This document shows positions 1,744 through 13,576 of a stretch of DNA of 13,576 nt, piece after piece. Positions within the stretch are counted from its first letter, which is position 1. Each line of letters starts with the position of its first letter. The translations under genes and the position numbers were made by a program. The notes below the pieces were generated by a model. The model was not told the origin of the DNA. It saw nothing but the letters and a program-made list of their open reading frames with translations, and made no database searches. The stretch comes from a virus. Location of the stretch: IMG/VR virus record IMGVR_UViG_3300045988_080276, positions 1 through 13,576 of that record. One strand, 5' to 3'.

Positions 1744-2433
1744 TTAATAAATTAATAAAAGCAGATCCTGTGCAAATAACCCGGTGCAATAGTCAATGAA
1801 GCTTTGTTTCCTTAACTCAAGCTCTGACTGGATCATCTGCTGTGAAGTAGTAACACCAACGTTGCCATGAATACGCCCTACATGCTTATTCTGTCCAGTC
1901 TCTCTGCTTGTCTCACCCTTGCCATATTCAAATGTATTTTTGTTTTCTCCGGAGCTTTGTACTGTTGTGCTGCTACCGTACTCCGTTGTCGTTTTTTCGT
2001 TCGGGCTGTAATTTTGATCATTAAAAGCACTGACTTCATTGGTTGCTGTATCTGCCCCGGAGTTGGTCGTAGTGCTTCCATGTCCCGCTTCTTCCCTGTT
2101 GATATCCTGCCCGGAGCTTTGGCTTGTTCGTGTCATATCCGGGCTATCTGTCCATTCTTCATGACGATCATAGTTTTCAATAGGTTCATAATTAGTTAAT
2201 TCTAACACATTATAAACCTTGTCAATGCTTGTTTTCCATTTCATGCTCCAAGCAGGAATAGCACTGTTATACATGAAATCCCAGTCCGGATAGAGTGGCT
2301 CACAATCTCCATAGGACAGAAGCAGGCTATCAATAAAATTCTGCCTGTCTGCTGATTCTGGGAACTCCATCTTGTCAAACAGAGTACTGTTCCATTCGTA
2401 AAGCCCTGCTATAGTTACTCTATAAAGTCCCAT
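1744..2433 (-). CDS. Putative lower collar / head-tail adaptor protein (gp11 position), 229 aa
   Basis: It lies immediately downstream of the portal gene and overlaps it by 14 nt. The SD is GGAGGTG, 7 nt before the ATG. It has a Ser/Thr/Gly-rich central region and a conserved-looking C-terminus, GNVGVTTSQQMIQSELELRK. The function is assigned mainly from synteny with phi29 genes 10-11-12. Confidence 0.45.
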   Translation of the reverse strand: MGLYRVTIAGLYEWNSTLFDKMEFPESADRQNFIDSLLLSYGDCEPLYPDWDFMYNSAIPAWSMKWKTSIDKVYNVLELTNYEPIENYDRHEEWTDSPDMTRTSQSSGQDINREEAGHGSTTTNSGADTATNEVSAFNDQNYSPNEKTTTEYGSSTTVQSSGENKNTFEYGKGETSRETGQNKHVGRIHGNVGVTTSQQMIQSELELRKQSFIDYCTGLFAQDLLLLIY

Positions 2434-3340
2434 AAGGTTTCACCTCCACAGTCTCATAACTTCTGATCTTGATTGACAGGTCCATCTCCGGATAAAGTCT
2501 ATTTGTCATGTCAACACCTGCTTGCATGGTTTCAAGCCAAGTAGTTAGCCGTGTCACGGATTCTGCATCATTTTTGCTTGTCTCAAGCATATTCAATCGT
2601 TCTTTTTTATCAGATCCGACTGATGGGATGCCAACCTCTGTATCGAATTGATCCAGAAGTTTTTCAAAAACCTCAATAAGTTCTGGTGCAATAAAATTTT
2701 GCTTAAGATCCTTATTAAAAGTTTCCCATGCATCCTGCTTGCTTCCTTGTCTGTCCTCACTTTTTATTGATACGTCAAACGCTTCAACAGGGTTTCCTGC
2801 CTGGATGCTGTCATAGATTTTTTTCAATGTCTGAGCGGATGCCTTGTTTTTCGCAGCAATCAGAAAAGCAAGCTTTGAATTAAAAACATTCATGTCGAAA
2901 GCAGATGCTACAAGTGCCAGTTTGTAGCTGTAAAATCCGATAATGTCTCCAATCCCACAAAAAGTTGGTCTGAGATAGATGACAGAACAATCTTTTCCGA
3001 TCTCCATGTCTTCAATGTCAATAACAGCGTTGCTAGCATACGTGTGTATAGTTGCTATCGTTGGCTTGAAATAAATGTTATAGCCTGTCAGCATTGGGTA
3101 CTGCGCAATAAGTCCATAAAGATCTGTCTTTGTCACGCAAATATAGCCACCGAAAAGTAGGCAATATTTGAAGTAGTCAATATCAATGTTGGCATTATAT
3201 TTGATGTCAAGCACAGAGCATACACGCTCGTAAAGCATCCGATCAAATATATCTGTATATAAGCTGTCAACCTTAATTCCAGATGGTTGGAAGTAATTTG
3301 TACATATATTGATCTTGTCAAAATTCATAGGTGCCCACAT
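2420..3340 (-). CDS. Portal / upper collar (connector) protein, phi29 gp10-like, 306 aa
   Basis: Its size is close to that of phi29 gp10 (309 aa). The segment VGIPSVGSDKKERLNMLETSKNDAES resembles gp10 [28 protein letters not shown] (recalled from memory). The SD is AGGAGG, 9 nt upstream. It sits between the tail-knob and collar genes. Confidence 0.8.
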   Translation of the reverse strand: MWAPMNFDKINICTNYFQPSGIKVDSLYTDIFDRMLYERVCSVLDIKYNANIDIDYFKYCLLFGGYICVTKTDLYGLIAQYPMLTGYNIYFKPTIATIHTYASNAVIDIEDMEIGKDCSVIYLRPTFCGIGDIIGFYSYKLALVASAFDMNVFNSKLAFLIAAKNKASAQTLKKIYDSIQAGNPVEAFDVSIKSEDRQGSKQDAWETFNKDLKQNFIAPELIEVFEKLLDQFDTEVGIPSVGSDKKERLNMLETSKNDAESVTRLTTWLETMQAGVDMTNRLYPEMDLSIKIRSYETVEVKPYGTL

Positions 3341-3355
3341 TTTTTCATTCCTCCT

Positions 3356-4699
3356 TTATTCAAAATAAAAACCAGTGTTTAAATAACTGTTCACTTGATC
3401 CTGATCTCCCTCAAAACCTGCAAGCTGTATTGATGCATTCCTACATTTTACAAACCCACTCAATGAAGAAATAGTTCTAACAGTTTCGTCCACATAACCC
3501 TCGCTTGTTCCATCTGGATCAAGACTTGTACAGGCATATGAATTGAACTCTAAAATCTGGTTATTGAGTATATTTGATATATTACCAATAGTCCCCAGCA
3601 TAGATATTTCTGGTGCTGTAATGCTTCTTGCTACATCTATTCCTGCTGAGATACCTTGAATGTTTCCTTGTAATCCTGCACTAACAAGGCTCACAGCTGA
3701 TGTAGTCAACTGGGCTATGTTTGTAGTTGCATAACCAATTTGCACGGGCACTGACAACTGGAATTGATAAGATGCAAAAACAACTTTTTTTGACTGCAAA
3801 AATACATTGCATAATCCACTTGTTGCATCAAATTGATAGAGTGCATTTACGCTTTCATCAATTTTATAAGGGTTAAGGGCAACTACTCCAATAAAAGGAA
3901 GCTTAATAAAATAGGTTGAAAATGACGGACTATAATACCTAAAATCAGTGATAGCATAAAGTGGATTATCAAAAGCAAATGAATAAGAAAAATTAATAAC
4001 CGCATCTTCATCAATTCTTTTTGCCATTACACCACTATCCCAGAATCCTAGCTGTATTGCTTCACTATTACTATTTTTAAAGGCATCTTCAATAAATGGA
4101 ACCCATTTTAAATCAACGATATATTTAAAAGGGTCAAACATTAACTTTGTAACAGCATCCTTTATCACATCAGCAAAATTTGATTCTGTATACATATAGT
4201 CGAGTAACCTATTTAATTGGCTGCCATTAATGTAGTATGATGCAACTCCTGTTTTTGAAACTACTCGTATGATATATTGCTGTGAGTATGTTTGTGTCAT
4301 TATTTTTTCTTTGTGTCTCACATTTCTGGTTGTTAGCACCCAATCATTTGTTGGAATATACATAGAATCATTGGCAAGAGTAGTCTGCCTGCTTGATCTC
4401 TCAATAAAACATGTATAGTTGCCGATCTCTGTCCGGTAAGTTGCTAGCACATCCTCACTTGCTGAGATCTCAACCATGTCGTTATTTAATGATGTAGTCG
4501 AATTGATAAAATAATAATGGTCAGCCCATTTCAGATAGTTGTATTGCAATGCATTATCCAGTGATAATTTTAATTTAAACACTGGATTCTGAAAAGCGGT
4601 ATCAGCTTTTAAAAGGCAGGGGACAGAAGTCCCCTGCCCTGCTGGTCTTTTGGTGCTGTTTTTTCGTTTGGAAAAATGAAATAAAATAATCTCTGTCAT
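3356..4699 (-). CDS. Putative tail knob / major tail protein (phi29 gp9 position), 447 aa
   Basis: It lies immediately upstream of the portal gene, as gp9 does in phi29. The N-terminal region (YNYLKWADHYYFINSTT...EDVLATYRTEI) resembles my memory of the gp9 N-terminus. Its ATG overlaps the lysin stop codon (ATGA at 4696-4699). The SD is GGTGAGGT. Confidence 0.55.
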   Translation of the reverse strand: MTEIILFHFSKRKNSTKRPAGQGTSVPCLLKADTAFQNPVFKLKLSLDNALQYNYLKWADHYYFINSTTSLNNDMVEISASEDVLATYRTEIGNYTCFIERSSRQTTLANDSMYIPTNDWVLTTRNVRHKEKIMTQTYSQQYIIRVVSKTGVASYYINGSQLNRLLDYMYTESNFADVIKDAVTKLMFDPFKYIVDLKWVPFIEDAFKNSNSEAIQLGFWDSGVMAKRIDEDAVINFSYSFAFDNPLYAITDFRYYSPSFSTYFIKLPFIGVVALNPYKIDESVNALYQFDATSGLCNVFLQSKKVVFASYQFQLSVPVQIGYATTNIAQLTTSAVSLVSAGLQGNIQGISAGIDVARSITAPEISMLGTIGNISNILNNQILEFNSYACTSLDPDGTSEGYVDETVRTISSLSGFVKCRNASIQLAGFEGDQDQVNSYLNTGFYFE

Positions 4700-5346
4700 T
4701 TTACATATACCTCACCTTTTGCTGTGATGGCGCAGATCCATCCGGATGGAATCTTTACCCACGTTGCTCCGGCATCATCCTTTTTTATATCTTTTACCGT
4801 GACTGTGGTTCCTTTTTTCAGGCATCCATCTGAATGGGCATGTTTCATTCCATCAAAAGTTAGCTGTGCATACTCTTTGACCTGCCCCCATATGCTGTAG
4901 CGCACATGTAAGTGATCCACCATTGTAGTATAACTCTTACCTATTTCATAAGATGGACTTTTTTCATCCCATACCCTGCGGATGCAAGATAAGTCAGACC
5001 TACGAGTTACAAGACTTTTTACAACTCCAATACCTGGATTATTGACGGTATTTTTTCTTACTCCCCTGCTTTCAATCATATATCCATTACCGATATAAAT
5101 AGCACAGTGAGTAACCCTATTTCCAAAAAATAGAAAGTCACCTGCTTTCTGCTGCCCAATCGCAATCTTTGTTCCAATCTTGGAATAACCGGAAGCCGTC
5201 AGTCTTCCAACATTTGATCCAGCTGTCCTCTGGATCCAGTATAGCAACCCTGAACAGTCAAGTCCCTGTGTGGGGTTTGAACCACCCCACACATATCTCA
5301 CTCCAAGTAATTCCTTTGCATTTTCGACAAGTTCAATCGCTGTCAT
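4696..5346 (-). CDS. NlpC/P60 peptidoglycan endopeptidase with C-terminal SH3-like domain (endolysin or tail-associated lysin), 216 aa
   Basis: The catalytic Cys lies in GLDCSGLLYW and the His in VTHCAIYIGNGYMIES. The C-terminal ~80 aa (GATWVKIPSGWICAITAKGEVYV) look like a bacterial SH3 wall-binding domain. The gene is adjacent to the holin. Confidence 0.8.
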   Translation of the reverse strand: MTAIELVENAKELLGVRYVWGGSNPTQGLDCSGLLYWIQRTAGSNVGRLTASGYSKIGTKIAIGQQKAGDFLFFGNRVTHCAIYIGNGYMIESRGVRKNTVNNPGIGVVKSLVTRRSDLSCIRRVWDEKSPSYEIGKSYTTMVDHLHVRYSIWGQVKEYAQLTFDGMKHAHSDGCLKKGTTVTVKDIKKDDAGATWVKIPSGWICAITAKGEVYVK

Positions 5347-5596: not shown

Positions 5597-6820
5597 CTAA
5601 TTATTACTAGGTGGCTTTGGTGCAACCTCCCCAAGCACGTAAAGAATAGCATTATGTGTGAAGTTGTTCCAAGCATTGAAGCGGTAGTGGTCAAAGATAT
5701 TGTAATATCCGCCTGCCGCATTGAATGGTGTAGTTGCAGAATACATCCACTGATTATTCACACCCATTGCTCTACGATCGTATAAAAGACCGAGTACATA
5801 AGGAATATTTACAGCTGAATTTGCTTTCTTTGAAACACCGTTCGCATCAATAATGTTTGGAGTGATGTTAATAGCTGGGCTGTCGAACTCCTGCCAGCCA
5901 TTTACCAGTTCTTTGTCGGCAATTTTAAGCTGTTCATCGTTAAATACCGTCGGGAATACCTGTGTTTCGCTGTCAATCCAGAAATCTGTGTACATGAGCA
6001 ACTTCTGGTTCTCCGGACGTGTAAATCTCAAGATATCTTTCCCAGTCAGATTCATGTGATATTTTGTTGTGCGATCCTGCATCTTCTTTGAGTCTTTCTT
6101 GATTCTTGCAACCACAAAAGCCATGAAATCTCTGTGATGTTCCGGGCTTAAAAGCTGTTTTCTTGTAAGATATGTACCATATGCTGTATTGTATTCATTT
6201 ACAAGATCAACCTCATTTGTGCCAAGTGAAGAGATACCCGCCATGAAGTTAAGCACCGTCATTCTGCGCTTTGCTTCGTTTCGGCTCTCGATGTCATTAT
6301 AATAAGCTGTCATGTATGAGCTTACAAACATAAGAAACTCTGCTTCGTTGGAAAAAGCAAGTGCCAGCTGATCCCGGAATCGTGTGATATGTGACTGAAG
6401 TAGCTTGCTTCCGTAGAATTTCAACTCAACTACTTTTGGGTTATTAATCTTGTACATATCCACAGACTGACCATCAGTAAGCTGGTTTTCATTCAAGTCT
6501 GTATTCCAATCCTGTGATGCTTCTGCATCCAATGGAAGTGAAATAATCTCACGTGTGATAGCTCCCCATCGCTCATTATCCTCAATGATGGAGCGAAACA
6601 CACCGGATCTGTACTTTTCCATTTCAAAATATGTTCGTCCACACCACTGGCTGAGTGCTTTTAGTGTTGGTTCTACTCCTGTCCGTAGCATGGTTTCACC
6701 CACAGACACAAATGAACTTGTATCCACTGCCTTAATGTTCTCCCTACCAGTAGCCATCTTGTACAGGTCATTAATGATGAGATAAGCATCCTGCACAACT
6801 AAACTATTTGCCATTTCCAT
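5597..6820 (-). CDS. Major capsid protein, phi29 gp8-like (HK97 fold expected), 407 aa
   Basis: It follows the scaffold gene, matching the phi29 7-8 order. The segment EFLMFVSSYMTAYYNDIE resembles gp8 FESFVSSIINAIYNSAE (from memory). The SD GAGGAGG is only 2 nt from ATG 6820 but 8 nt from the in-frame ATG at 6814, so the true start may be 6814. Confidence 0.8.
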   Translation of the reverse strand: MEMANSLVVQDAYLIINDLYKMATGRENIKAVDTSSFVSVGETMLRTGVEPTLKALSQWCGRTYFEMEKYRSGVFRSIIEDNERWGAITREIISLPLDAEASQDWNTDLNENQLTDGQSVDMYKINNPKVVELKFYGSKLLQSHITRFRDQLALAFSNEAEFLMFVSSYMTAYYNDIESRNEAKRRMTVLNFMAGISSLGTNEVDLVNEYNTAYGTYLTRKQLLSPEHHRDFMAFVVARIKKDSKKMQDRTTKYHMNLTGKDILRFTRPENQKLLMYTDFWIDSETQVFPTVFNDEQLKIADKELVNGWQEFDSPAINITPNIIDANGVSKKANSAVNIPYVLGLLYDRRAMGVNNQWMYSATTPFNAAGGYYNIFDHYRFNAWNNFTHNAILYVLGEVAPKPPSNN

Positions 6821-6829
6821 TACCTCCTC

Positions 6830-7159
6830 TTAATTCATGATTTTCATAAGATCTTCTGCCACGTTCTCAGATGTTCGTGGTGCTGATCCAGCTTTTCCGG
6901 ATGCCGAAAGGTTACCAGCCTGTAACGTAGCAGTCAATGTATTGATTGCTGTCAGAAGAGCTGCATTAGTTGCATCCTGTCCAGGAGTAACCTGTTCCGG
7001 AGTTGTAACCTGTCCCGGAGTTGTAACCTGTCCTGGAGTAACCTGTCCCGGAGTTGAAATCTGTCCAAGCCCAGACATATTCTGTGCATTCATAATTCCA
7101 ATGATCTCATCTTTTGAAAATCCAAGCTTTCCGAGTTCCAAAATTTCCTCTACTTTCAT
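6830..7159 (-). CDS. Putative scaffolding protein (phi29 gp7 position) with internal PGQVT repeats, 109 aa
   Basis: It is a small protein directly upstream of the capsid gene. The SD is AAGGAG, 6 nt before the ATG. The ends look helical and the centre is low-complexity. The function is inferred from position and size only (gp7 is 98 aa). Confidence 0.55.
   Translation of the reverse strand: MKVEEILELGKLGFSKDEIIGIMNAQNMSGLGQISTPGQVTPGQVTTPGQVTTPEQVTPGQDATNAALLTAINTLTATLQAGNLSASGKAGSAPRTSENVAEDLMKIMN
6968..7066 (-). repeat. In-frame tandem repeat encoding (T)PGQVT units
   Basis: The protein reads GQISTPGQVTPGQVTTPGQVTTPEQVTPGQDAT. The DNA shows about 5 imperfect 15/18-nt units (ggagtaacctgtcc / ggagttgtaacctgtcc). 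Confidence 0.8.
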
Positions 7160-7194
7160 TTTTATCTCCTTTTCTGCCGGAAGTTAAAATTAAA

Positions 7195-7266
7195 ATAGGT
7201 CAACGCTTCCGGGTTATCACCCCATGGCATCCGCTTCCGGCGGTCGATGTAGCCACGTTGACCTAT
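7195..7266 (-). ncRNA. Candidate structured RNA (three-way junction, ~72 nt) at the 5' end of the late transcript; could be an ncRNA, attenuator, antiterminator or pRNA-like element, function unknown
   Basis: The closing helix is 11 bp: AUAGGUCAACG (7266->7256) pairs with CGUUGACCUAU (7205->7195). Inside are two hairpins, CCGC-CGGAA-GCGG (7243->7231) and GGGU-GAUA-ACCC (7222->7211). The structure is followed by UUUAAUUUUAA and starts at the predicted TSS of the 7271-7299 promoter. Confidence 0.35.
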
Positions 7267-7270
7267 ATCT

Positions 7271-7299
7271 AATATATAATTTTTAAAATAGTTTGTCAA
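7271..7299 (-). promoter_or_regulatory. Near-consensus promoter for the structural (late) gene block
   Basis: On the minus strand the -35 is TTGACA (7299->7294), the spacer is 17 bp, and the -10 is TATATT (7276->7271). The -35 lies in the last codons of the ATPase gene. The predicted TSS is at about 7266-7263. Confidence 0.6.
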
Positions 7300-8329
7300 T
7301 ATAGAATTTTACAGAAATATTCTGGTAGCTGATTCTATTTGTCAGACGATAGCTGTCAATCCAGCTATAAAAGCACCGGAATTGGTCTTTTCCATGCTGG
7401 CTGTCTTCAAATACATCCTTGCAGGATCCGGAAATATGATCAGAAACATACAAGTGTGCTTTTGATTTATGCTCATAAATTGCAACTTTTCCGATCACAC
7501 AAATAAGCTTGTATTGACGGATATCTTCTGATCGGATCGCTGATATATCATCATATGCAAAATCGTTTGACAATGCCATCTTTTCAAAGTCTGTATCTCC
7601 AGATAAAGCACGATACAAAGCGGTATCTTTTTTCTTTTCCGATATTGGGGAATTATTAATCAGAATCAAGATGATTCCTCTCTCTTTTAACATGGAAAAC
7701 TCCTGCTTATTCTTTTTCATTCGTTCCAAGATCGGAAGCAACCCGAAAGCCTGCACAATTGGATTATCCAACGTGTTTGAGTTGGAAGCAAGCCACCATC
7801 GGAACGGTTTCTTTCCTTGTAGCTCCCTGTTTGCGGATATTGTTTCAACAGCATTCAGAAAAGCATCATCTTCCCCACTGATTGACTTGGCAATCTTTTC
7901 CGGGATAAACTCATCATAAATTCCCTCAGAGAAATCAGATCCAGAGAAACCACGGTTATTATGCATGGATGTAAGACAAAAAGCTTCACCCCGGTATACT
8001 TCTTCATCCTCTGTTTGCTCCATGATCTTAATGCGTCCGTATTCCCCTCTTGGTTTTTCAAAATGAAAAAACCTATTCATGTCCTTGTTTATGTCAATCC
8101 ATGGATCAAATTCCGGAAGAAAGACTTTTGTCAGCTGTTCTTTTGTCCGGCGCATGTAAATGATCTTCTCATTTTTCGAAAATACATCATTGATAAAGTG
8201 TTGGAAAATACCATATGTTTTTCCGGTTCGTCTGGCTCCAATAATGAATATGAAATTAATTTTATTTTTATCAGCCAGCTGGACGATCCTTGGAACATCC
8301 AGCCAACCATTTCTATCATAGATATTCAT
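7283..8329 (-). CDS. DNA encapsidation (packaging) ATPase, phi29 gp16-like, 348 aa from ATG 8329
   Basis: Walker A is FIFIIGARRTGKTYG (gp16: FVIGARGIGKSYA). IIYMRRTKEQLTKV matches gp16 FIYVRRYKPELAKV. Walker B is IYDEFIPEK (gp16: VFDEFIREK). The ORF track starts at 8377, but ATG 8329 forms TAATG with the upstream stop codon and has GGAGGTG ~10 nt upstream. Confidence 0.9.
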   Translation of the reverse strand: MNIYDRNGWLDVPRIVQLADKNKINFIFIIGARRTGKTYGIFQHFINDVFSKNEKIIYMRRTKEQLTKVFLPEFDPWIDINKDMNRFFHFEKPRGEYGRIKIMEQTEDEEVYRGEAFCLTSMHNNRGFSGSDFSEGIYDEFIPEKIAKSISGEDDAFLNAVETISANRELQGKKPFRWWLASNSNTLDNPIVQAFGLLPILERMKKNKQEFSMLKERGIILILINNSPISEKKKDTALYRALSGDTDFEKMALSNDFAYDDISAIRSEDIRQYKLICVIGKVAIYEHKSKAHLYVSDHISGSCKDVFEDSQHGKDQFRCFYSWIDSYRLTNRISYQNISVKFYIDKLF

Positions 8330-8628
8330 TACCGAAATCCACCTCCAGAGGATGCAGGCTCCGAATTCTGATTGCACTCATTGTATTTTTTGATGCAAGC
8401 ATCCTGCAATAATTTTTTCCATTCTTTATCAAGAGAATAAACAGAATTATAATACTTCCCGTCTTTCCCCTTTGTGCTTGGGAATGACAGGAAAAGACCA
8501 TCTTTTCCCTCAACCAACGTAAGAGCTTTGATAACCAATGTGTCATCCAGAGAAAGATCAACAAAGGCTTTTGTTTTTGAATTCCCATTATAAGGTTTGC
8601 AAGTAATTTTTACGTTTGATTTTAACAT
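8329..8628 (-). CDS. SpoVG-like nucleic-acid-binding protein, 99 aa
   Basis: KAFVDLSLDDTLVIKALTLVEGKDGLFLSFPSTKGKDGKYY aligns by eye with B. subtilis SpoVG [41 protein letters not shown] (from memory). The SD is AAGGAG. Translation appears coupled to the ATPase gene. Confidence 0.7.
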   Translation of the reverse strand: MLKSNVKITCKPYNGNSKTKAFVDLSLDDTLVIKALTLVEGKDGLFLSFPSTKGKDGKYYNSVYSLDKEWKKLLQDACIKKYNECNQNSEPASSGGGFR

Positions 8629-8789: not shown

Positions 8790-8903
8790 TTAATCACCCA
8801 GCAGTAACAACAATTGACAGCTTGCAAACATGAAACCAAAAGCAATGCATGTCCAGAAAAACGTTTCAATGTCATCTTTGTTTTCTCTCCAAAATTTTTT
8901 CAT
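8790..8903 (-). CDS. 37-aa single-pass membrane mini-protein (absent from the ORF track)
   Basis: I translated it by hand as MKKFWRENKDDIETFFWTCIAFGFMFASCQLLLLLGD, followed by a stop. The SD is GGAGGTG, 5 nt before the ATG (8903). The hydrophobic stretch is 23 aa. It is the first ORF after the AT-rich intergenic region downstream of the polymerase gene. Confidence 0.5.
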   Translation of the reverse strand: MKKFWRENKDDIETFFWTCIAFGFMFASCQLLLLLGD

Positions 8904-8917
8904 AGTTACACCTCCTG

Positions 8918-8964
8918 ATTATAATTTAATATATTTATGTTACAAAACTATTACAATTTTACAA
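8918..8964 (-). promoter_or_regulatory. Candidate tandem promoters in the AT-rich intergenic region
   Basis: On the minus strand, TTGTAA (8956->8951), 17 bp, TATATT (8933->8928) forms one candidate. TTGTAA (8945->8940), 16 bp, TATAAT (8923->8918) forms a second. A third TTGTAA lies at 8964->8959. The second candidate would place the TSS inside the SD. Confidence 0.35.
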
Positions 8965-8968
8965 CAAT

Positions 8969-11092
8969 TTATCCGTATACGGTATCTTCAATCTCAAATG
9001 GTAATGGTAATCCGGTTTCCTTGTCATATGGTATTGTATGATCCAACTCGTATTCTGTATCGCTCAAGCGGATGGCACATCCATATTCAATCTTGCAACC
9101 GTCAATGATTACCTCATTTATTCCATCATGAAATATATATTCTGTCTTCATTTTCCACTTGGGATCCTGCCAATCATTCGATCTTCTGTAGTTCCTGCGG
9201 AATGTCAAGTCATTTCTGAAAATAAATCCTTTTCTAAAATTGGTTATATCATCGTTAAGGCAATAAATCCCCTCTTTTGGCACACCTGCGACTGTCAGAT
9301 GCAAGGATGCATCCTTTTTCAATCGGTAACAATAACGCTTGCTACCCATCGTTTTAAATTCACTGTATATCCCATCAAATTCAGCAATACCCAGTCGGAA
9401 TGTTTTAGAATTATACTCAACTACTCCGATGTTTCTTTTTTGTGACATTTCAATGATGGATCGATTAAATGAATCCAGTTTATCGTGATCCCAGTCTGTG
9501 CCCTTTACTGAATCTGTGTCTGAATATAACCAGTTCCGGCAACAGGAACCCAGCAGGAACAGATAAGCTTGTGCATACGCTGTGATCCATACCCCCCACT
9601 GGTAGGGCATGAAGCTGTTCTTGTTCCGATAGAACTTTTCAAGCTCTTTTTCCCTGTCCTCTGGTTCTTTTGATTCCCAGTCTCCGGAATCCATAAGCTC
9701 TGTACATAACATCTGAATAATTCTTTGAACTGTCATTCCGTACATACCATTTAATTCGCCTTTTGATATCATGTAGTTTTCTTCGTCCAAGCCTTTAAGG
9801 GTGCATTTTTTAAAAAACAATTCCATCAAATATCCGGTAAACCACTCCGGCAAGTAATCTTTTGTTGCCCTCATGACTTTTGACACATCGGCCCAGTCAT
9901 AGTCATAACTTGAAAGGATGACTTCTAAATCCGGATCCGTAAATGGATATATGACAAGATCAGCGTTGACGATCTTTCCATTATCCAGATTATCGTGGAA
10001 CTGTTCTTTTTTACTTTTTGCTTCCGGAAAAACACATACTTTCGCTTTTGAAAAAGCAAGTGGAGGCATAGGACAGTCTTTTTTTAGTCTCAGATTCTTT
10101 AATCTGATATATCCGGAAAAAGCATAGTCATCTTTCAATTCCATAATGTCTTTTAATGTTATATTGTTAGTATAACAAAATTTTGACATTGGAAACTTGC
10201 AATAGCACATCCATGCTATATAGGAACTTGTGAAATCGTAGCACTCAACAGGATCTTTTATCAGTTGGTTGACATAGTACCTATTGGCATGAGTATAACC
10301 ACCGTGATAGCAGTCAAGCATCTGGTCATACTGCTCCAACGTCAGAGCCATTTGTTCAAATTGCTTTCGCCATTTCTTGTCTTTTCTCGCTCGCCTGCGG
10401 GAATTGGCACGGATAAAACCTGTATTTGTCAACGGGCAGTTAGCCACGTTAAATCCTCTTTGGTTTATGTATTTGCGTAATGCCTTGCATAGACTGATTG
10501 TATCCGTACATACATATGCTATTTCTTTTGCTGTACGTGGGCTTTCCGGTGTTCGAAATTTCTTATAGTCCCATGTTCCAACTGCTTTCTCAGTTGTTCC
10601 CATGTCTTTGCAAAGTTTCTCAAGTGATCGTTGTGTGAGTATTAGACTATCACGGAATTCAATTCCCTGCGATGTCCATTTCATAAAAATATATTTATGG
10701 GTTTTAGCAGATAAAGACTTATCAGGATAGCCCCATTTTTGGAAAAAATGATTACGGAGAAAAACATAGTCATAAGGGAAATTGTGCACATAAAAGCGTA
10801 CAAGATGACTATCATCACTATGAAGAGTTGTACAGATCCTATCAATCGTATCAATCAGATCGGAAACATGATTACCGTAAATACAGCAATCATCCTCTAT
10901 AGTGATTGTCCAATCCGTGACAAAACCAATATCTTTGTTCATGTAAACAAATGTCTCTGTGTCTATAGTTATGATTTTTTCATAAACACCAAGATAATGT
11001 CCTGCATTGGACCTCCGGATAAAATCACCATCGAAAAGGCGCATATAATCATAATTTTTAAAATAAATAACCGGATATCCTGCGACTACCAT
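8969..11092 (-). CDS. Protein-primed family-B DNA polymerase, 707 aa
   Basis: The motifs are Exo I ITIDTETF, Exo II YVHNFPYDYVF, Exo III AYVCTDTISL, motif A YDFTSSYIAWM, motif B KGELNGMYGM, motif C LYSDTDS and KxY GSKRYCY. The SD is GGAGGG. Confidence 0.95.
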   Translation of the reverse strand: MVVAGYPVIYFKNYDYMRLFDGDFIRRSNAGHYLGVYEKIITIDTETFVYMNKDIGFVTDWTITIEDDCCIYGNHVSDLIDTIDRICTTLHSDDSHLVRFYVHNFPYDYVFLRNHFFQKWGYPDKSLSAKTHKYIFMKWTSQGIEFRDSLILTQRSLEKLCKDMGTTEKAVGTWDYKKFRTPESPRTAKEIAYVCTDTISLCKALRKYINQRGFNVANCPLTNTGFIRANSRRRARKDKKWRKQFEQMALTLEQYDQMLDCYHGGYTHANRYYVNQLIKDPVECYDFTSSYIAWMCYCKFPMSKFCYTNNITLKDIMELKDDYAFSGYIRLKNLRLKKDCPMPPLAFSKAKVCVFPEAKSKKEQFHDNLDNGKIVNADLVIYPFTDPDLEVILSSYDYDWADVSKVMRATKDYLPEWFTGYLMELFFKKCTLKGLDEENYMISKGELNGMYGMTVQRIIQMLCTELMDSGDWESKEPEDREKELEKFYRNKNSFMPYQWGVWITAYAQAYLFLLGSCCRNWLYSDTDSVKGTDWDHDKLDSFNRSIIEMSQKRNIGVVEYNSKTFRLGIAEFDGIYSEFKTMGSKRYCYRLKKDASLHLTVAGVPKEGIYCLNDDITNFRKGFIFRNDLTFRRNYRRSNDWQDPKWKMKTEYIFHDGINEVIIDGCKIEYGCAIRLSDTEYELDHTIPYDKETGLPLPFEIEDTVYG

Positions 11093-12083: not shown

Positions 12084-12148
12084 TTACTATTCCTCCTTTA
12101 CAATCAATATTTAAGATTACAATAATCCATGACTTTTTGAAACCCTAA

Positions 12149-13102
12149 ACCATCATCATCGGTGACAGTTATACCGTTGGGTATACACCGGATGGCAATG
12201 TAACTCCATGGACAACTAACTTTATTAAGTACACAGGACTTGAGGATGTCACAATATCTGCAAATGGTGGGGCATCTTTCTCAACAAGTACTAATTCATT
12301 TCTTATGTTGTTAAACGCTGTACCAGCTTCTGCGGATGTAAAACAGGTCCTTGTCGTAGGTGGATTTAATGAGTTTGGAAGCTACTCAGAAATTGAAAAC
12401 GGAATCAACGCTTTTATGGGAGCAGCAGAAGCAAGATTTCCGAATGCCAAAGTGTTTTCTGCCATGGTAGCATGGTCAGTTGATCGGACAGATGATCCAA
12501 ATGTACAGAATAGGCTCAAGACTGCGAAGAGTGTGTATAACATACAGCGGAAGAATTGGCGGTATTTGACAGGAAGCGATTATATTCTTCATGCAGATGG
12601 TTTTCTTGCTTCTGATGGATTTCACCCAAACACAACAGGGCAGGAACGGCTTGCAGCCTATCTTGCTACAGCTGTAGAAACAGGATCGTGTAGTCCATCA
12701 TTTTATGATGTTATTGCAAATTTTGAAGCAGGTGACTTTGCACCAACTCTTGGATCAAGTTGGACATTTGTTAGTTCGTATAATGAGAATACGAGTACTC
12801 TGATATGGGGTAACTATGTTTGTCTCCCAAACAGCGGAACACTTGTCTGTGATGGCACGGAATACCGTTTGGGACGGATTTTCTCAACGTCTTTTATTGG
12901 AGATCATAACGGATACACATGCTATCCAACAACTGTGATCGTTAAGTCCGGAAGTAATTTCTATCACATCCCTGCACAGCTTAACTTCCGAGGAAGGCAT
13001 ATCTATTTAGCCCTGTATGATATTTCAGACGATAAGCACTACTACCGGACTTTGACAGAAGTAACACAGGTACAAATTCATAGAGGTTCAATCACAATGT
13101 AA
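12149..13102 (+). pseudogene. 5'-truncated duplicate of the SGNH tail-fibre gene (codons 102-418) inside the right ITR
   Basis: It is identical to the left copy from codon 102 onward. TAA at 12146-12148 replaces the AAA of codon 101. The first in-frame ATG is at 12305 (the ORF-track 265-aa ORF). That ATG has no SD, and the product would lack the GDS block I and block II. Confidence 0.7.
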
Positions 13103-13113
13103 TAATAGAGATG

Positions 13114-13131
13114 GCCCAGCGGATGCTGGGC
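13114..13131. terminator. Right-ITR copy of the hairpin terminator
   Basis: It mirrors 446-463. For leftward transcription from the right-end promoter, it presents the side with the poor U-tract. Confidence 0.6.
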
Positions 13132-13139
13132 TATTGTTT

Positions 13140-13376
13140 TTACTCTTCAAATAGAAATTCATCTAAAATATCTCTCTTGACATCAACTATAGTGTTAAAA
13201 GTACGAGTGTACTCAGCACCTGTACAGAGTACCTTGTAAGAAACATCATACTTATATTTATCTAATCGGTTCACATACACTTCAACAACTCCAGCTAATG
13301 ACTCAAAAGCACTCCAGCAATATCCCTCATCATTTGCCCTTTCCAACAACTCATTAAGGTTTTCTAAGCTATTCAT
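13140..13376 (-). CDS. Small acidic hypothetical protein encoded in the ITR, right copy
   Basis: It is identical to 201..437 (ORF track 13140..13397). Here it is co-oriented with the whole gene array. Confidence 0.65.
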   Translation of the reverse strand: MNSLENLNELLERANDEGYCWSAFESLAGVVEVYVNRLDKYKYDVSYKVLCTGAEYTRTFNTIVDVKRDILDEFLFEE

Positions 13377-13408
13377 ATCTTGTTTCCTCTCTTTCATTTG
13401 ATAAGTCT

Positions 13409-13437
13409 ACTATAGTCCAATTGAACTAATATGTCAA
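13409..13437 (-). promoter_or_regulatory. Right-ITR copy of the near-consensus promoter, firing leftward
   Basis: It mirrors 140-168: TTGACA, 17 bp, TATAGT on the minus strand. Confidence 0.7.
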
Positions 13438-13576
13438 TAGAATAAGTGACGACTTTGTATGATATTGTCAGACAATTTAATGTTATAGTTATCTAGCAAT
13501 ATTCATGCCAGTTTTTTGCAATTATGAACAGATTGGGGAAATGTTAACAATTTGTTCACAGGTTGGTCTTGCCAAG

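Follow-up and report, generated by a model that had tools for sequence, protein, structure and literature searches.

The window analysed here, IMG/VR record IMGVR_UViG_3300045988_080276 from position 1 to position 13,576, is the complete genome of a phi29-like gut phage, which is linear, 13,576 base pairs (bp) long and bounded by perfect inverted terminal repeats (ITRs) of 1,430 bp. On its minus strand, just ahead of the structural genes, lies a conserved, covariation-supported RNA of about 70 nucleotides (nt), which folds as a three-way junction with a closing helix (P1), an arm with a bulge (P2) and a hairpin (P3), and in which the bulge and the P3 loop are joined by a co-varying pairing. 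We tentatively read this element as a miniature homologue or analogue of the prohead/packaging RNA (pRNA) of phi29, an identification to which we give slightly less than an even chance.

In the window, the parts of the element and its surroundings are as follows.

7294-7299, minus strand: -35 hexamer TTGACA, within the final ATPase codons (..I D K L F stop).
7271-7276, minus strand: -10 hexamer TATATT, after a 17-bp spacer; 11/12 matches in the promoter scan.
About 7266-7263, minus strand: transcription start at the first P1 bases, predicted from the promoter position.
7255-7266, minus strand: P1 5' strand AUAGGUCAACG(U), A-helix-like, forming 11-12 bp with 7195-7206.
7252-7254, minus strand: P2a 5' strand GGC, C-helix-like, pairing with GCC 7226-7228.
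7244-7251, minus strand: 8-nt 5' bulge UACAUCGA, CE-loop-like, with 2 nt opposite.
7231-7243, minus strand: P2b hairpin CCGC-CGGAA-GCGG, E-helix/E-loop-like.
7226-7230, minus strand: AU spacer (7230-7229) and P2a 3' strand GCC (7228-7226).
7211-7223, minus strand: P3 hairpin GGG-GUGAUAA-CCC, D-helix/D-loop-like.
7195-7210, minus strand: J3/1 GGAA(G), then the P1 3' strand (G)CGUUGACCUAU.
7184-7194, minus strand: U-rich tail UUUAAUUUUAA, adjoining the P1 3' end.
7176-7183, minus strand: downstream segment CUUCCGGC, complementary to GCCGGAAG at 7241-7234.
7157-7170, minus strand: Shine-Dalgarno (SD) sequence AGGAG (7170-7166) and ATG (7159-7157), the start of a 109-amino-acid (aa) open reading frame (ORF).

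The 72-nt RNA has a minimum free energy (MFE) of -30.4 kcal/mol (z = -3.5), and 0 of 200 shuffled sequences were as stable. The region 7160-7282 is the only intergenic region of the window with significant structure besides the ITR terminators, and it is also the longest intergenic stretch of the unique region; an earlier description of it as the sole long non-coding stretch there went too far, because 8876-8968 is non-coding as well. The original prediction had given coordinates and sequences for the promoter, P1, hairpins, tail and SD that all proved correct on the minus strand, including the pairing of AUAGGUCAACG (7266 to 7256) with CGUUGACCUAU (7205 to 7195) and the hairpins at 7243 to 7231 and at 7222 to 7211 (GGGU-GAUA-ACCC), and its stable fold was confirmed by the shuffling above. 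Both hairpins that it enclosed within P1 are present, but the first sits on a helix that had been missed, GGC 7254-7252 with GCC 7228-7226, together with the 8-nt bulge. The sequence CCGGAAGCG, to which attention had been drawn for occurring twice, is indeed found at 7240 to 7232 and at 7212 to 7204; the second copy is not conserved (GUAAG, AUAAG and AGAAG in relatives), and the duplication was therefore set aside as insignificant. ARAGORN found 0 tRNA or transfer-messenger RNA genes in the window, and the Rfam 15 models, including Phage_pRNA, riboswitches and self-cleaving ribozymes, gave no match in 7160-7300 at E<=10. A hammerhead identity was also rejected, with no core discernible by eye and with J2/3 consisting of 1-3 nt, not CUGANGA. 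A second near-consensus promoter (TTGACA-16-TAGAAT, 7332-7359, minus strand) lies within the ATPase gene near its 3' end, 60 nt ahead of the promoter of the element, and a transcript from it would bear a 5' extension on P1.

Conservation of the helices was examined in 80 IMG/VR contigs with 40-97% amino-acid identity in the ATPase, kept out of 339 contigs with ATPase relatives; alignment A1 held 31 distinct sequences and alignment A2 held 34, adding the 40%-identity clade. The element directly follows the ATPase stop codon in every relative down to 65% ATPase identity. RNAalifold, run on A1 without a supplied structure, returned four helices, which correspond to P1 (10 of the 11-12 bp), GGC/GCC, CCGC/GCGG and GGG/CCC. 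In A1, 97% of cells were paired, compared with 30-43% when the partners were slid, and 14 of the 26 pairs showed double-sided changes; in A2, the paired fraction was 92.7%, double-sided changes occurred in 17 of the 26 pairs, and the covariation score was 0.45 versus 0.18 in shuffles. The double-sided counts of both alignments were reached by 0 of 500 shuffles, with slid controls 30-46% paired overall, so that the compensatory changes proposed as a check on the helices were found. In P1, 8-9 pairs change on both sides; in A2, all three P2a pairs exchange among GC, AU and CG and are 100% paired, and the P3 pair 53-61 is GC in 30 sequences and AU in 4. G-U pairs, such as U7255-G7206 in 18-22 sequences, assign the structure to the transcribed strand. 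A protein-coding reading of the 45-aa ORF at 7162-7299 was discarded in view of 1-nt and 3-nt indels in L053, L056 and L057, and of substitutions that keep the pairing, including G-U pairs valid only on the RNA strand.

The bulge bases A7248 U7247 C7246 G7245 are complementary to U7219 G7218 A7217 U7216 of the P3 loop (AUCG:UGAU). In A2, the corresponding columns are 23-58 (AU in 26, GC in 8), 24-57 (UA in 22, CG in 12), 25-56 (CG in 34) and 26-55 (AU in 22, GU in 11), and two of them carry double-sided changes. Within one clade, L180 has AGCCA:UGGCU and L188 has AACCA:UGGUU, and the complementarity co-varies both within and between at least 10 clades, with 3-8 bp of differing sequence and at least 15 different complementary bulge:loop pairs across the family. 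When 27 distinct bulges were compared with all loops, the mean was 5.3 consecutive Watson-Crick pairs for cognate and 3.1 for non-cognate combinations, and the observed cognate sum over the 27 bulges was matched by 0 of 5000 permutations. An alternative register suggested by a script, CAUC:GAUG, was rejected, since it fails in the L071 and L180 clades whereas AUCG:UGAU fits all. Faster evolution of the kissing helix than of P1, a possible hint of selection for specificity, was not seen when L154 was compared with L158.

The same architecture extends far beyond the close relatives of the window. A covariance model of the window superclade gave no matches in distant relatives, and distant members were recovered by a descriptor scan and direct sequence reading, the descriptor consisting of promoter, P1, P2a, a bulge of 6-11 nt, P2b, CNGAA, P2a', a bulge-complementary region and P1'. 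The architecture was present in 165 of the 197 loci examined (90 unique sequences). The family comprises at least 10 clades, the most distant at about 27% ATPase identity, and the element is carried by hundreds of phage contigs from the human gut as well as by the cultured Amedibacillus phages AD70P2/P3 (OP172638, OP172639). Single-sequence MFE folds of six dissimilar-looking members gave the same dot-bracket grammar. Across the family the bulge measures 7-10 nt, P2b 4-5 bp, P1 6-16 bp and the whole element 60-85 nt. The CNGAA pentaloop is the sole primary-sequence motif kept across nearly all clades, the E-loop being CGGAA, CAGAA or CCGAA in all of them but L087 (AGCC), and J3/1 varies among clades (GGAAG, CUUUG, AAGGG, AAGAA, UA, ACA). 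Conserved junction or pocket nucleotides of the kind found in riboswitches are absent, only the CNGAA loop being kept across clades, and such near-freedom of primary sequence within a fixed architecture argues against a small-molecule aptamer or a ribozyme core.

The bulge:loop pairs of distant members illustrate this range. AD70P3 has UCC:GGA, with P2a UUGC/GCAA, bulge AUAUCCAA and loop CCGAA; MT836263 has GGC:GCC; MT836155 has GUCG:CGAC; MT836587 has UCC:GGA with the E-loop AGCC; and the MT835998 clade has GCUAUA:UGUAGC, with GCUAUG:UAUAGC in its variant L094. In the MT835901 (L086) superclade, represented by 137 IMG/VR contigs, there are six kinds of 8-bp pairs, namely AAAAGGAA:UUCCUUUU, AAGCAAAG:CUUUGCUU, AACUUAGA:UCUAAGUU, AAGUUAAG:CUUAACUU, AACAAGAG:CUCUUGUU and AACAUAGA:UCUAUGUU. 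Members of this superclade (L086, L143 and relatives) have a second structured domain between the element and the SD, 1-90 nt after P1, with a long hairpin (GUUUCUGA...UUCAGAAAC in L086 and GUUCCUGA...UCAGGAAC in L143) that loosely recalls domain II of the 174-nt phi29 pRNA. Inspection of Clostridium phage CI644P1 and Eggerthella phage LE1-1 for the element revealed nothing convincing; CI644P1 has a terminator-like bulged hairpin with a U-tract near its genome end.

In all clades the element is preceded by a promoter with a TTGACA/TTGATA-like -35 hexamer, a 17-bp spacer (rarely 16 or 18) and a TAnnnT -10 hexamer, whose end lies 0-8 nt from the start of P1 in the 90 unique members. From this spacing, transcription is predicted to start at the first paired base of P1, so that the 5' end would be paired with a segment about 60 nt downstream, as an equivalent of the phi29 A helix. 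The order of promoter, element and first structural-operon gene is likewise constant, and the start codon is found 15-95 nt past P1 where it can be located. The position of the ATPase gene is not constant. In the MT835998 clade it is on the other strand, 8 kb off, and the element (L082, 1045-1125) opens a plus-strand structural operon that starts with the gene for a small hydrophobic protein. In the L074/L180 clade an operon convergent with the ATPase gene lies across the terminator at the end of that gene, and it is this convergent operon that begins with the element. The view that the element belongs to the ATPase gene is contradicted by these two clades, and so is the original argument that its place beside the gp16 homologue spoke for a miniature pRNA. 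In L042 (IMGVR_UViG_3300045988_092829), a 27-nt tandem duplication (TATATTGACAAATTATTCAAATAATCT twice) upstream of the element doubles the -35 region and the end of the ATPase gene, resulting in two tandem promoters before the element.

The sequence after P1 was compared in 128 distinct element-plus-downstream sequences. The first 9 nt contain 0-8 U residues across the family, with 5-8 in the window, L056 and L180 clades. In the L158 clade the tail (GUUCUAAG) is poor in U and without a U-tract, and the SD is reached within about 13 nt after P1; P1 abuts the SD without a U-tract in the L165 clade, and the tail of the L086 clade is weak (GUUUCUGAG). A stem followed by a U-tract, the trait of a lambda tR'-like terminator, is thus a feature of individual clades and was not found family-wide, although in the window clade the U-rich tail may, judging from its sequence, act as a partial intrinsic terminator. 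In L180-L196, the P1 3' end CCUAU can pair with a downstream AUAGG (CCUAU-UUCU-AUAGG), followed by UUUCAAUUUUAUU, and the result could be a small hairpin resembling a terminator, formed as an alternative to the base of P1 and in competition with it.

Some clades also carry a segment downstream of P1 that is complementary to the fold. In the window, CUUCCGGC pairs with GCCGGAAG, that is, with the end of the P2b 5' strand, the E-loop and one more base, through 8 Watson-Crick bp, a result reached in 7 of 2000 shuffles. In the MT835998 clade the pairing is UCCGUCCGU:ACGGACGGA, and L094 shows compensatory substitutions there (A>G / U>C); in the L056/57 clades the segment faces the 3' half of the E-loop and the P2b/P2a 3' strands (9 Watson-Crick bp, or 13 with G-U pairs counted by eye); in L071-73 it targets the P2a 3' strand and the P3 5' strand; and the L086 clade shares the motif UUCCGGCAG. 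In all, 5-6 clades have such complements, 7-10 bp long (p = 0.003-0.17 each), and there is no clear sequestration of the SD. In AD70P3, L083 and the L154, L158 and L165 clades no comparable segment was seen. The complement at 7183 to 7176 pointed out originally is therefore real as an 8-bp complementarity, and would give an alternative or pseudoknot pairing that is specific to certain clades.

The nearest known counterpart of the element is the pRNA of the phi29 family of Bacillus phages (Salasmaviridae; Rfam RF00044). In phi29, the A1 promoter (TTGACA-17-TATAAT) is followed by 7 nt and then by UCAAUGG..., the first of which is the first A-helix base. RNAfold of the 120-nt phi29 pRNA gave the A helix; a 9-bp C helix with a bulge; a 9-nt 5' bulge with 0 nt opposite; a 4-bp E helix with a 6-nt loop; a 3-nt linker; the D hairpin; and the 3' strand of the A helix. 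In phi29, CE-loop 45-AACC-48 of one pRNA pairs with D-loop 82-GGUU-85 of its neighbour; gp16 is bound by the A helix, this ATPase docking through pRNA, and the CE/D domain binds the prohead (PMC2241910). Primary sequence drifts among pRNAs while the architecture is fixed (PMC12670572). The gut element shares with phi29 pRNA the three-way junction, the order of its parts, the side and size of the bulge, the size of the E hairpin, the D-like hairpin and, as predicted from its promoter, both a closing helix formed from paired 5' and 3' ends and a consensus sigma-A promoter starting at the first base of that helix. Its second arm likewise comprises a stem, an 8-9-nt 5' bulge with 0-2 nt opposite, a 4-5-bp stem and a 4-6-nt loop, and its bulge:loop complementarity is phage-specific and 3-8 nt long, one gut clade using AACCA:UGGUU. 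The phi29-like context expected of a pRNA-bearing phage, that is, a gp16-type ATPase and a connector, is also present.

According to reviews, pRNA is confined to phi29 and the Bacillus phages related to it (PMC11476376, PMC5066667), a 2025 Infernal survey added 12 more pRNAs of about 120 nt, all of the Bacillus type judging from the named phages and seed models (PMC12670572), and the Guelinviridae genome paper names pRNA only as the partner of the ATPase (PMC3362512). The literature searched contained no account of an RNA of this kind from gut phages or Guelinviridae.

The pRNA reading, which is the most likely of those weighed here, draws on the match between the element and the architecture of the one RNA known to be needed by such motors; the co-varying bulge-loop pairing and the A1-like promoter layout, with about 6 nt between the -10 hexamer and the closing helix, lend strong and unexpected support to what had initially been one of three suggestions. 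Under this reading, the RNA would be made as the first approximately 70 nt of the structural-operon transcript, and would be freed by partial termination at the P1 U-tract, as in the window clade, or by RNase cleavage of the AU-rich linker. Bulge and loop would pair between neighbouring molecules, as they do in phi29, to form a ring on the portal vertex of the prohead; this ring would dock the gp16-type ATPase, and the conserved E-loop would contact a conserved protein. More speculatively, the downstream segment that pairs with the E hairpin in several clades might mask the copies still attached to mRNA. RNA-dependent packaging beyond the Bacillus relatives of phi29, with a ring of approximately 70-nt pRNAs docking the ATPase on the portal of 12-15-kb gut podophages that have anaerobic Firmicutes as hosts, is a possibility that we regard with rather more doubt than belief.

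Several observations weigh against a packaging role. In every case the element forms the 5' leader of the structural operon and lies 0-110 nt from an SD, whereas phi29 makes its pRNA as a transcript of its own, with a terminator, from the end of the genome; P1 is not followed by a terminator in several clades, so that a free small RNA would there have to arise by processing. The downstream complementary segments resemble a riboregulatory platform, and sequence comparison does not separate bulge-loop pairing in cis from pairing in trans. P1, with its variable length of 6-16 bp, is without the bulged long A helix that binds gp16 in phi29. The Rfam model RF00044, which has a core of about 118 nt with a long bulged A helix and a long C helix and scores 145 bits on phi29, gave no match in the window (E<=10) or in L082, L085 and L086 (E<=1). 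The basic RKR motif with which the phi29 gp10 connector binds pRNA was absent on inspection of the connector N-terminus (MWAPMNFDK...). In the related phage CI644P1 (L197, OP172766; 15163-15557) there is no element, and the late/structural promoter TTGTCA..TATAAT runs straight into the SD. The gut element also differs from phi29 pRNA in its length (60-85 nt versus 117-174 nt), in its C-equivalent helix (3-6 bp versus 9 bp plus a bulge), and in having an unbulged A-equivalent helix of 6-16 bp and no separate terminator domain.

The main rival, less likely than not, is a cis-acting 5' leader of the structural mRNA, in which bulge and loop of one molecule would pair with each other as a tertiary contact and so make the fold compact; in variants of this explanation the paired 5' end guards against decay by RNase J/Y, the E-loop binds a protein that tunes translation or stability, or both, and the downstream complement serves as a platform for alternative pairing. 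The structural operon invariably starts with the element, irrespective of which gene comes first and where the ATPase gene lies, and this accords with such a leader, as do the SD directly after P1 and the lack of a terminator in some clades. Firmicute mRNAs are stabilised when the transcription start is the first paired base, a design that the predicted start of the element reproduces. P2a and P3 are of roughly matched length (3/3, 4/4, 5/5, 5/4), which would suit side-by-side docking, and the lysine riboswitch provides a precedent for intramolecular kissing loops that co-vary. Like purine and lysine riboswitches, the element is about 70 nt long and has a P1 closing helix, two arms with pairing loops and a 5'-untranslated-region site, and in several clades there are downstream complements to the E hairpin or core, beside the SD, one of them with a compensatory change. 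Unlike these riboswitches, it has no conserved junction nucleotides that could form a ligand pocket and no Rfam match, its loop pairs with an internal bulge where these riboswitches have a second terminal loop, several clades do not carry the platform, and sequestration of the SD is inconsistent. A simple hairpin would be enough as a stabiliser, and an elaborate fold kept to about 27% ATPase identity asks for more; the first gene differs between clades, which makes gene-specific autoregulation unlikely; and the occurrence of the exact pRNA topology in a phi29-like phage would be a coincidence. The leader and pRNA readings are compatible, a leader-derived pRNA being possible.

It is improbable that the element is a promoter-proximal intrinsic terminator or attenuator, in which P1 and the U-tract stop most transcripts, including read-through from the ATPase operon, and the structural genes depend on read-through or antitermination as in lambda PR'-6S RNA-tR'/Q. 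The 11-12-bp P1 with UAUUUUAAUUUUAA right behind it in the window, the comparable tails of the L056 and L180 clades, and the lack of any other terminator between the ATPase gene and the structural genes are what such a device would present, and the U-tract on which this suggestion was first based does recur in some clades; in others, however, the SD stands 0-13 nt after P1 with no U-tract, and since the U-tract is clade-specific (see the L158, L165 and L086 tails), a terminator or attenuator cannot be the common function of the family. The site was not called by the terminator scan, no Q-like factor was found, and a branched three-way junction with co-varying loops far exceeds what a terminator needs. 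With lambda 6S RNA/tR' and HK022 put the element shares its structured nature, its length of about 70 nt, its position directly after a strong promoter heading a long operon and, in the window clade, the U-tract, but those are simple hairpins, whereas the gut element is a three-way junction with a kissing bulge and loop and only some clades show the terminator trait; no Q-like gene, qut site or sequence similarity to lambda 6S or put was found. Least probable of all is a put-like or EAR-like processive antiterminator RNA that binds RNA polymerase through the approximately 6.8-kb structural operon, for although the element is promoter-proximal at the head of a long operon in every clade, HK022 put is of comparable size and multi-stem shape, and terminator-like hairpins occur within the operon (e.g., 4639-4621), there are besides CNGAA no conserved nucleotides to contact a conserved polymerase surface, the role would be thwarted by a downstream segment that opens the E hairpin as soon as it is made, and the internal terminators are weak predictions that do not outnumber those in shuffles (10 versus 7.5).

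If the pRNA reading holds, the element would be a new variant of pRNA, and may be a candidate for the first packaging RNA outside Bacillus phages; otherwise it would be a new class of leader RNA. The family bears on the question of portal docking by the gp16-type ATPases of the many other phi29-like phages, for which it offers a concrete gut candidate with cultured representatives (AD70P2/P3). A packaging role would halve the known minimal size of pRNA and thereby define a minimal pRNA, would reveal the junction, CE bulge, E hairpin and D loop as its essential parts, and would supply natural orthogonal kissing pairs of 3-8 bp for RNA nanotechnology; it would also suggest that pRNA is ancestral to the whole phi29-like lineage. 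As a leader, the element would represent a new and widespread class of structured RNA with control over the expression of structural genes in the smallest tailed phages.

The other genes of the window to which this discussion refers are listed below.

8969-11092, minus strand: family-B (protein-primed-type) DNA polymerase, PHROG match.
7283-8377, minus strand: gp16-type packaging ATPase, PHROG terminase phrog_2150.
6830-7159, minus strand: 109-aa repeat-rich ORF, which opens the structural operon and is followed directly by the major head protein gene.
5597-6820, minus strand: major head protein, PHROG match; tail genes are also on the minus strand.
2420-3340, minus strand: upper collar connector, PHROG match.

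The best solved PDB relatives of the window ATPase are phi29 gp16 structures (7JQQ, 5HD9), and the closest deposited relatives of the phage are unannotated human-faecal phage contigs and the cultured Amedibacillus phages AD70P2/P3 (Guelinviridae). The ATPase ORF is listed from a GTG at 8377; many relatives align only from residue 17 (MNIYDRNGW..., ATG 8329), which is probably the true start, and a start at 8329 would remove the overlap with the ORF 8329-8628. The 109-aa ORF downstream of the element gave no PHROG match, and the label of scaffold gene given to it at first is putative. Its protein has PGQVT(T) repeats, encoded by tandem 15/18-nt repeats at 6968-7066 inside the ORF (6830-7159, minus strand).

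The ITRs, at 1-1430 and 12147-13576, are very long for a phi29-like genome (6 bp in phi29), and each of them holds ORFs, an 11/12 consensus promoter (140-168; 13437-13409) and a bidirectional terminator (442-467; 13110-13135). In the structural operon, a G+C-rich hairpin with a U-tail (GGGCAGGGGAC..GUCCCCUGCCUUUU, 4602-4645, minus strand) marks the junction of the ORFs 4696-5346 and 3356-4699, and the same region has a weak chance Rfam match on the plus strand.

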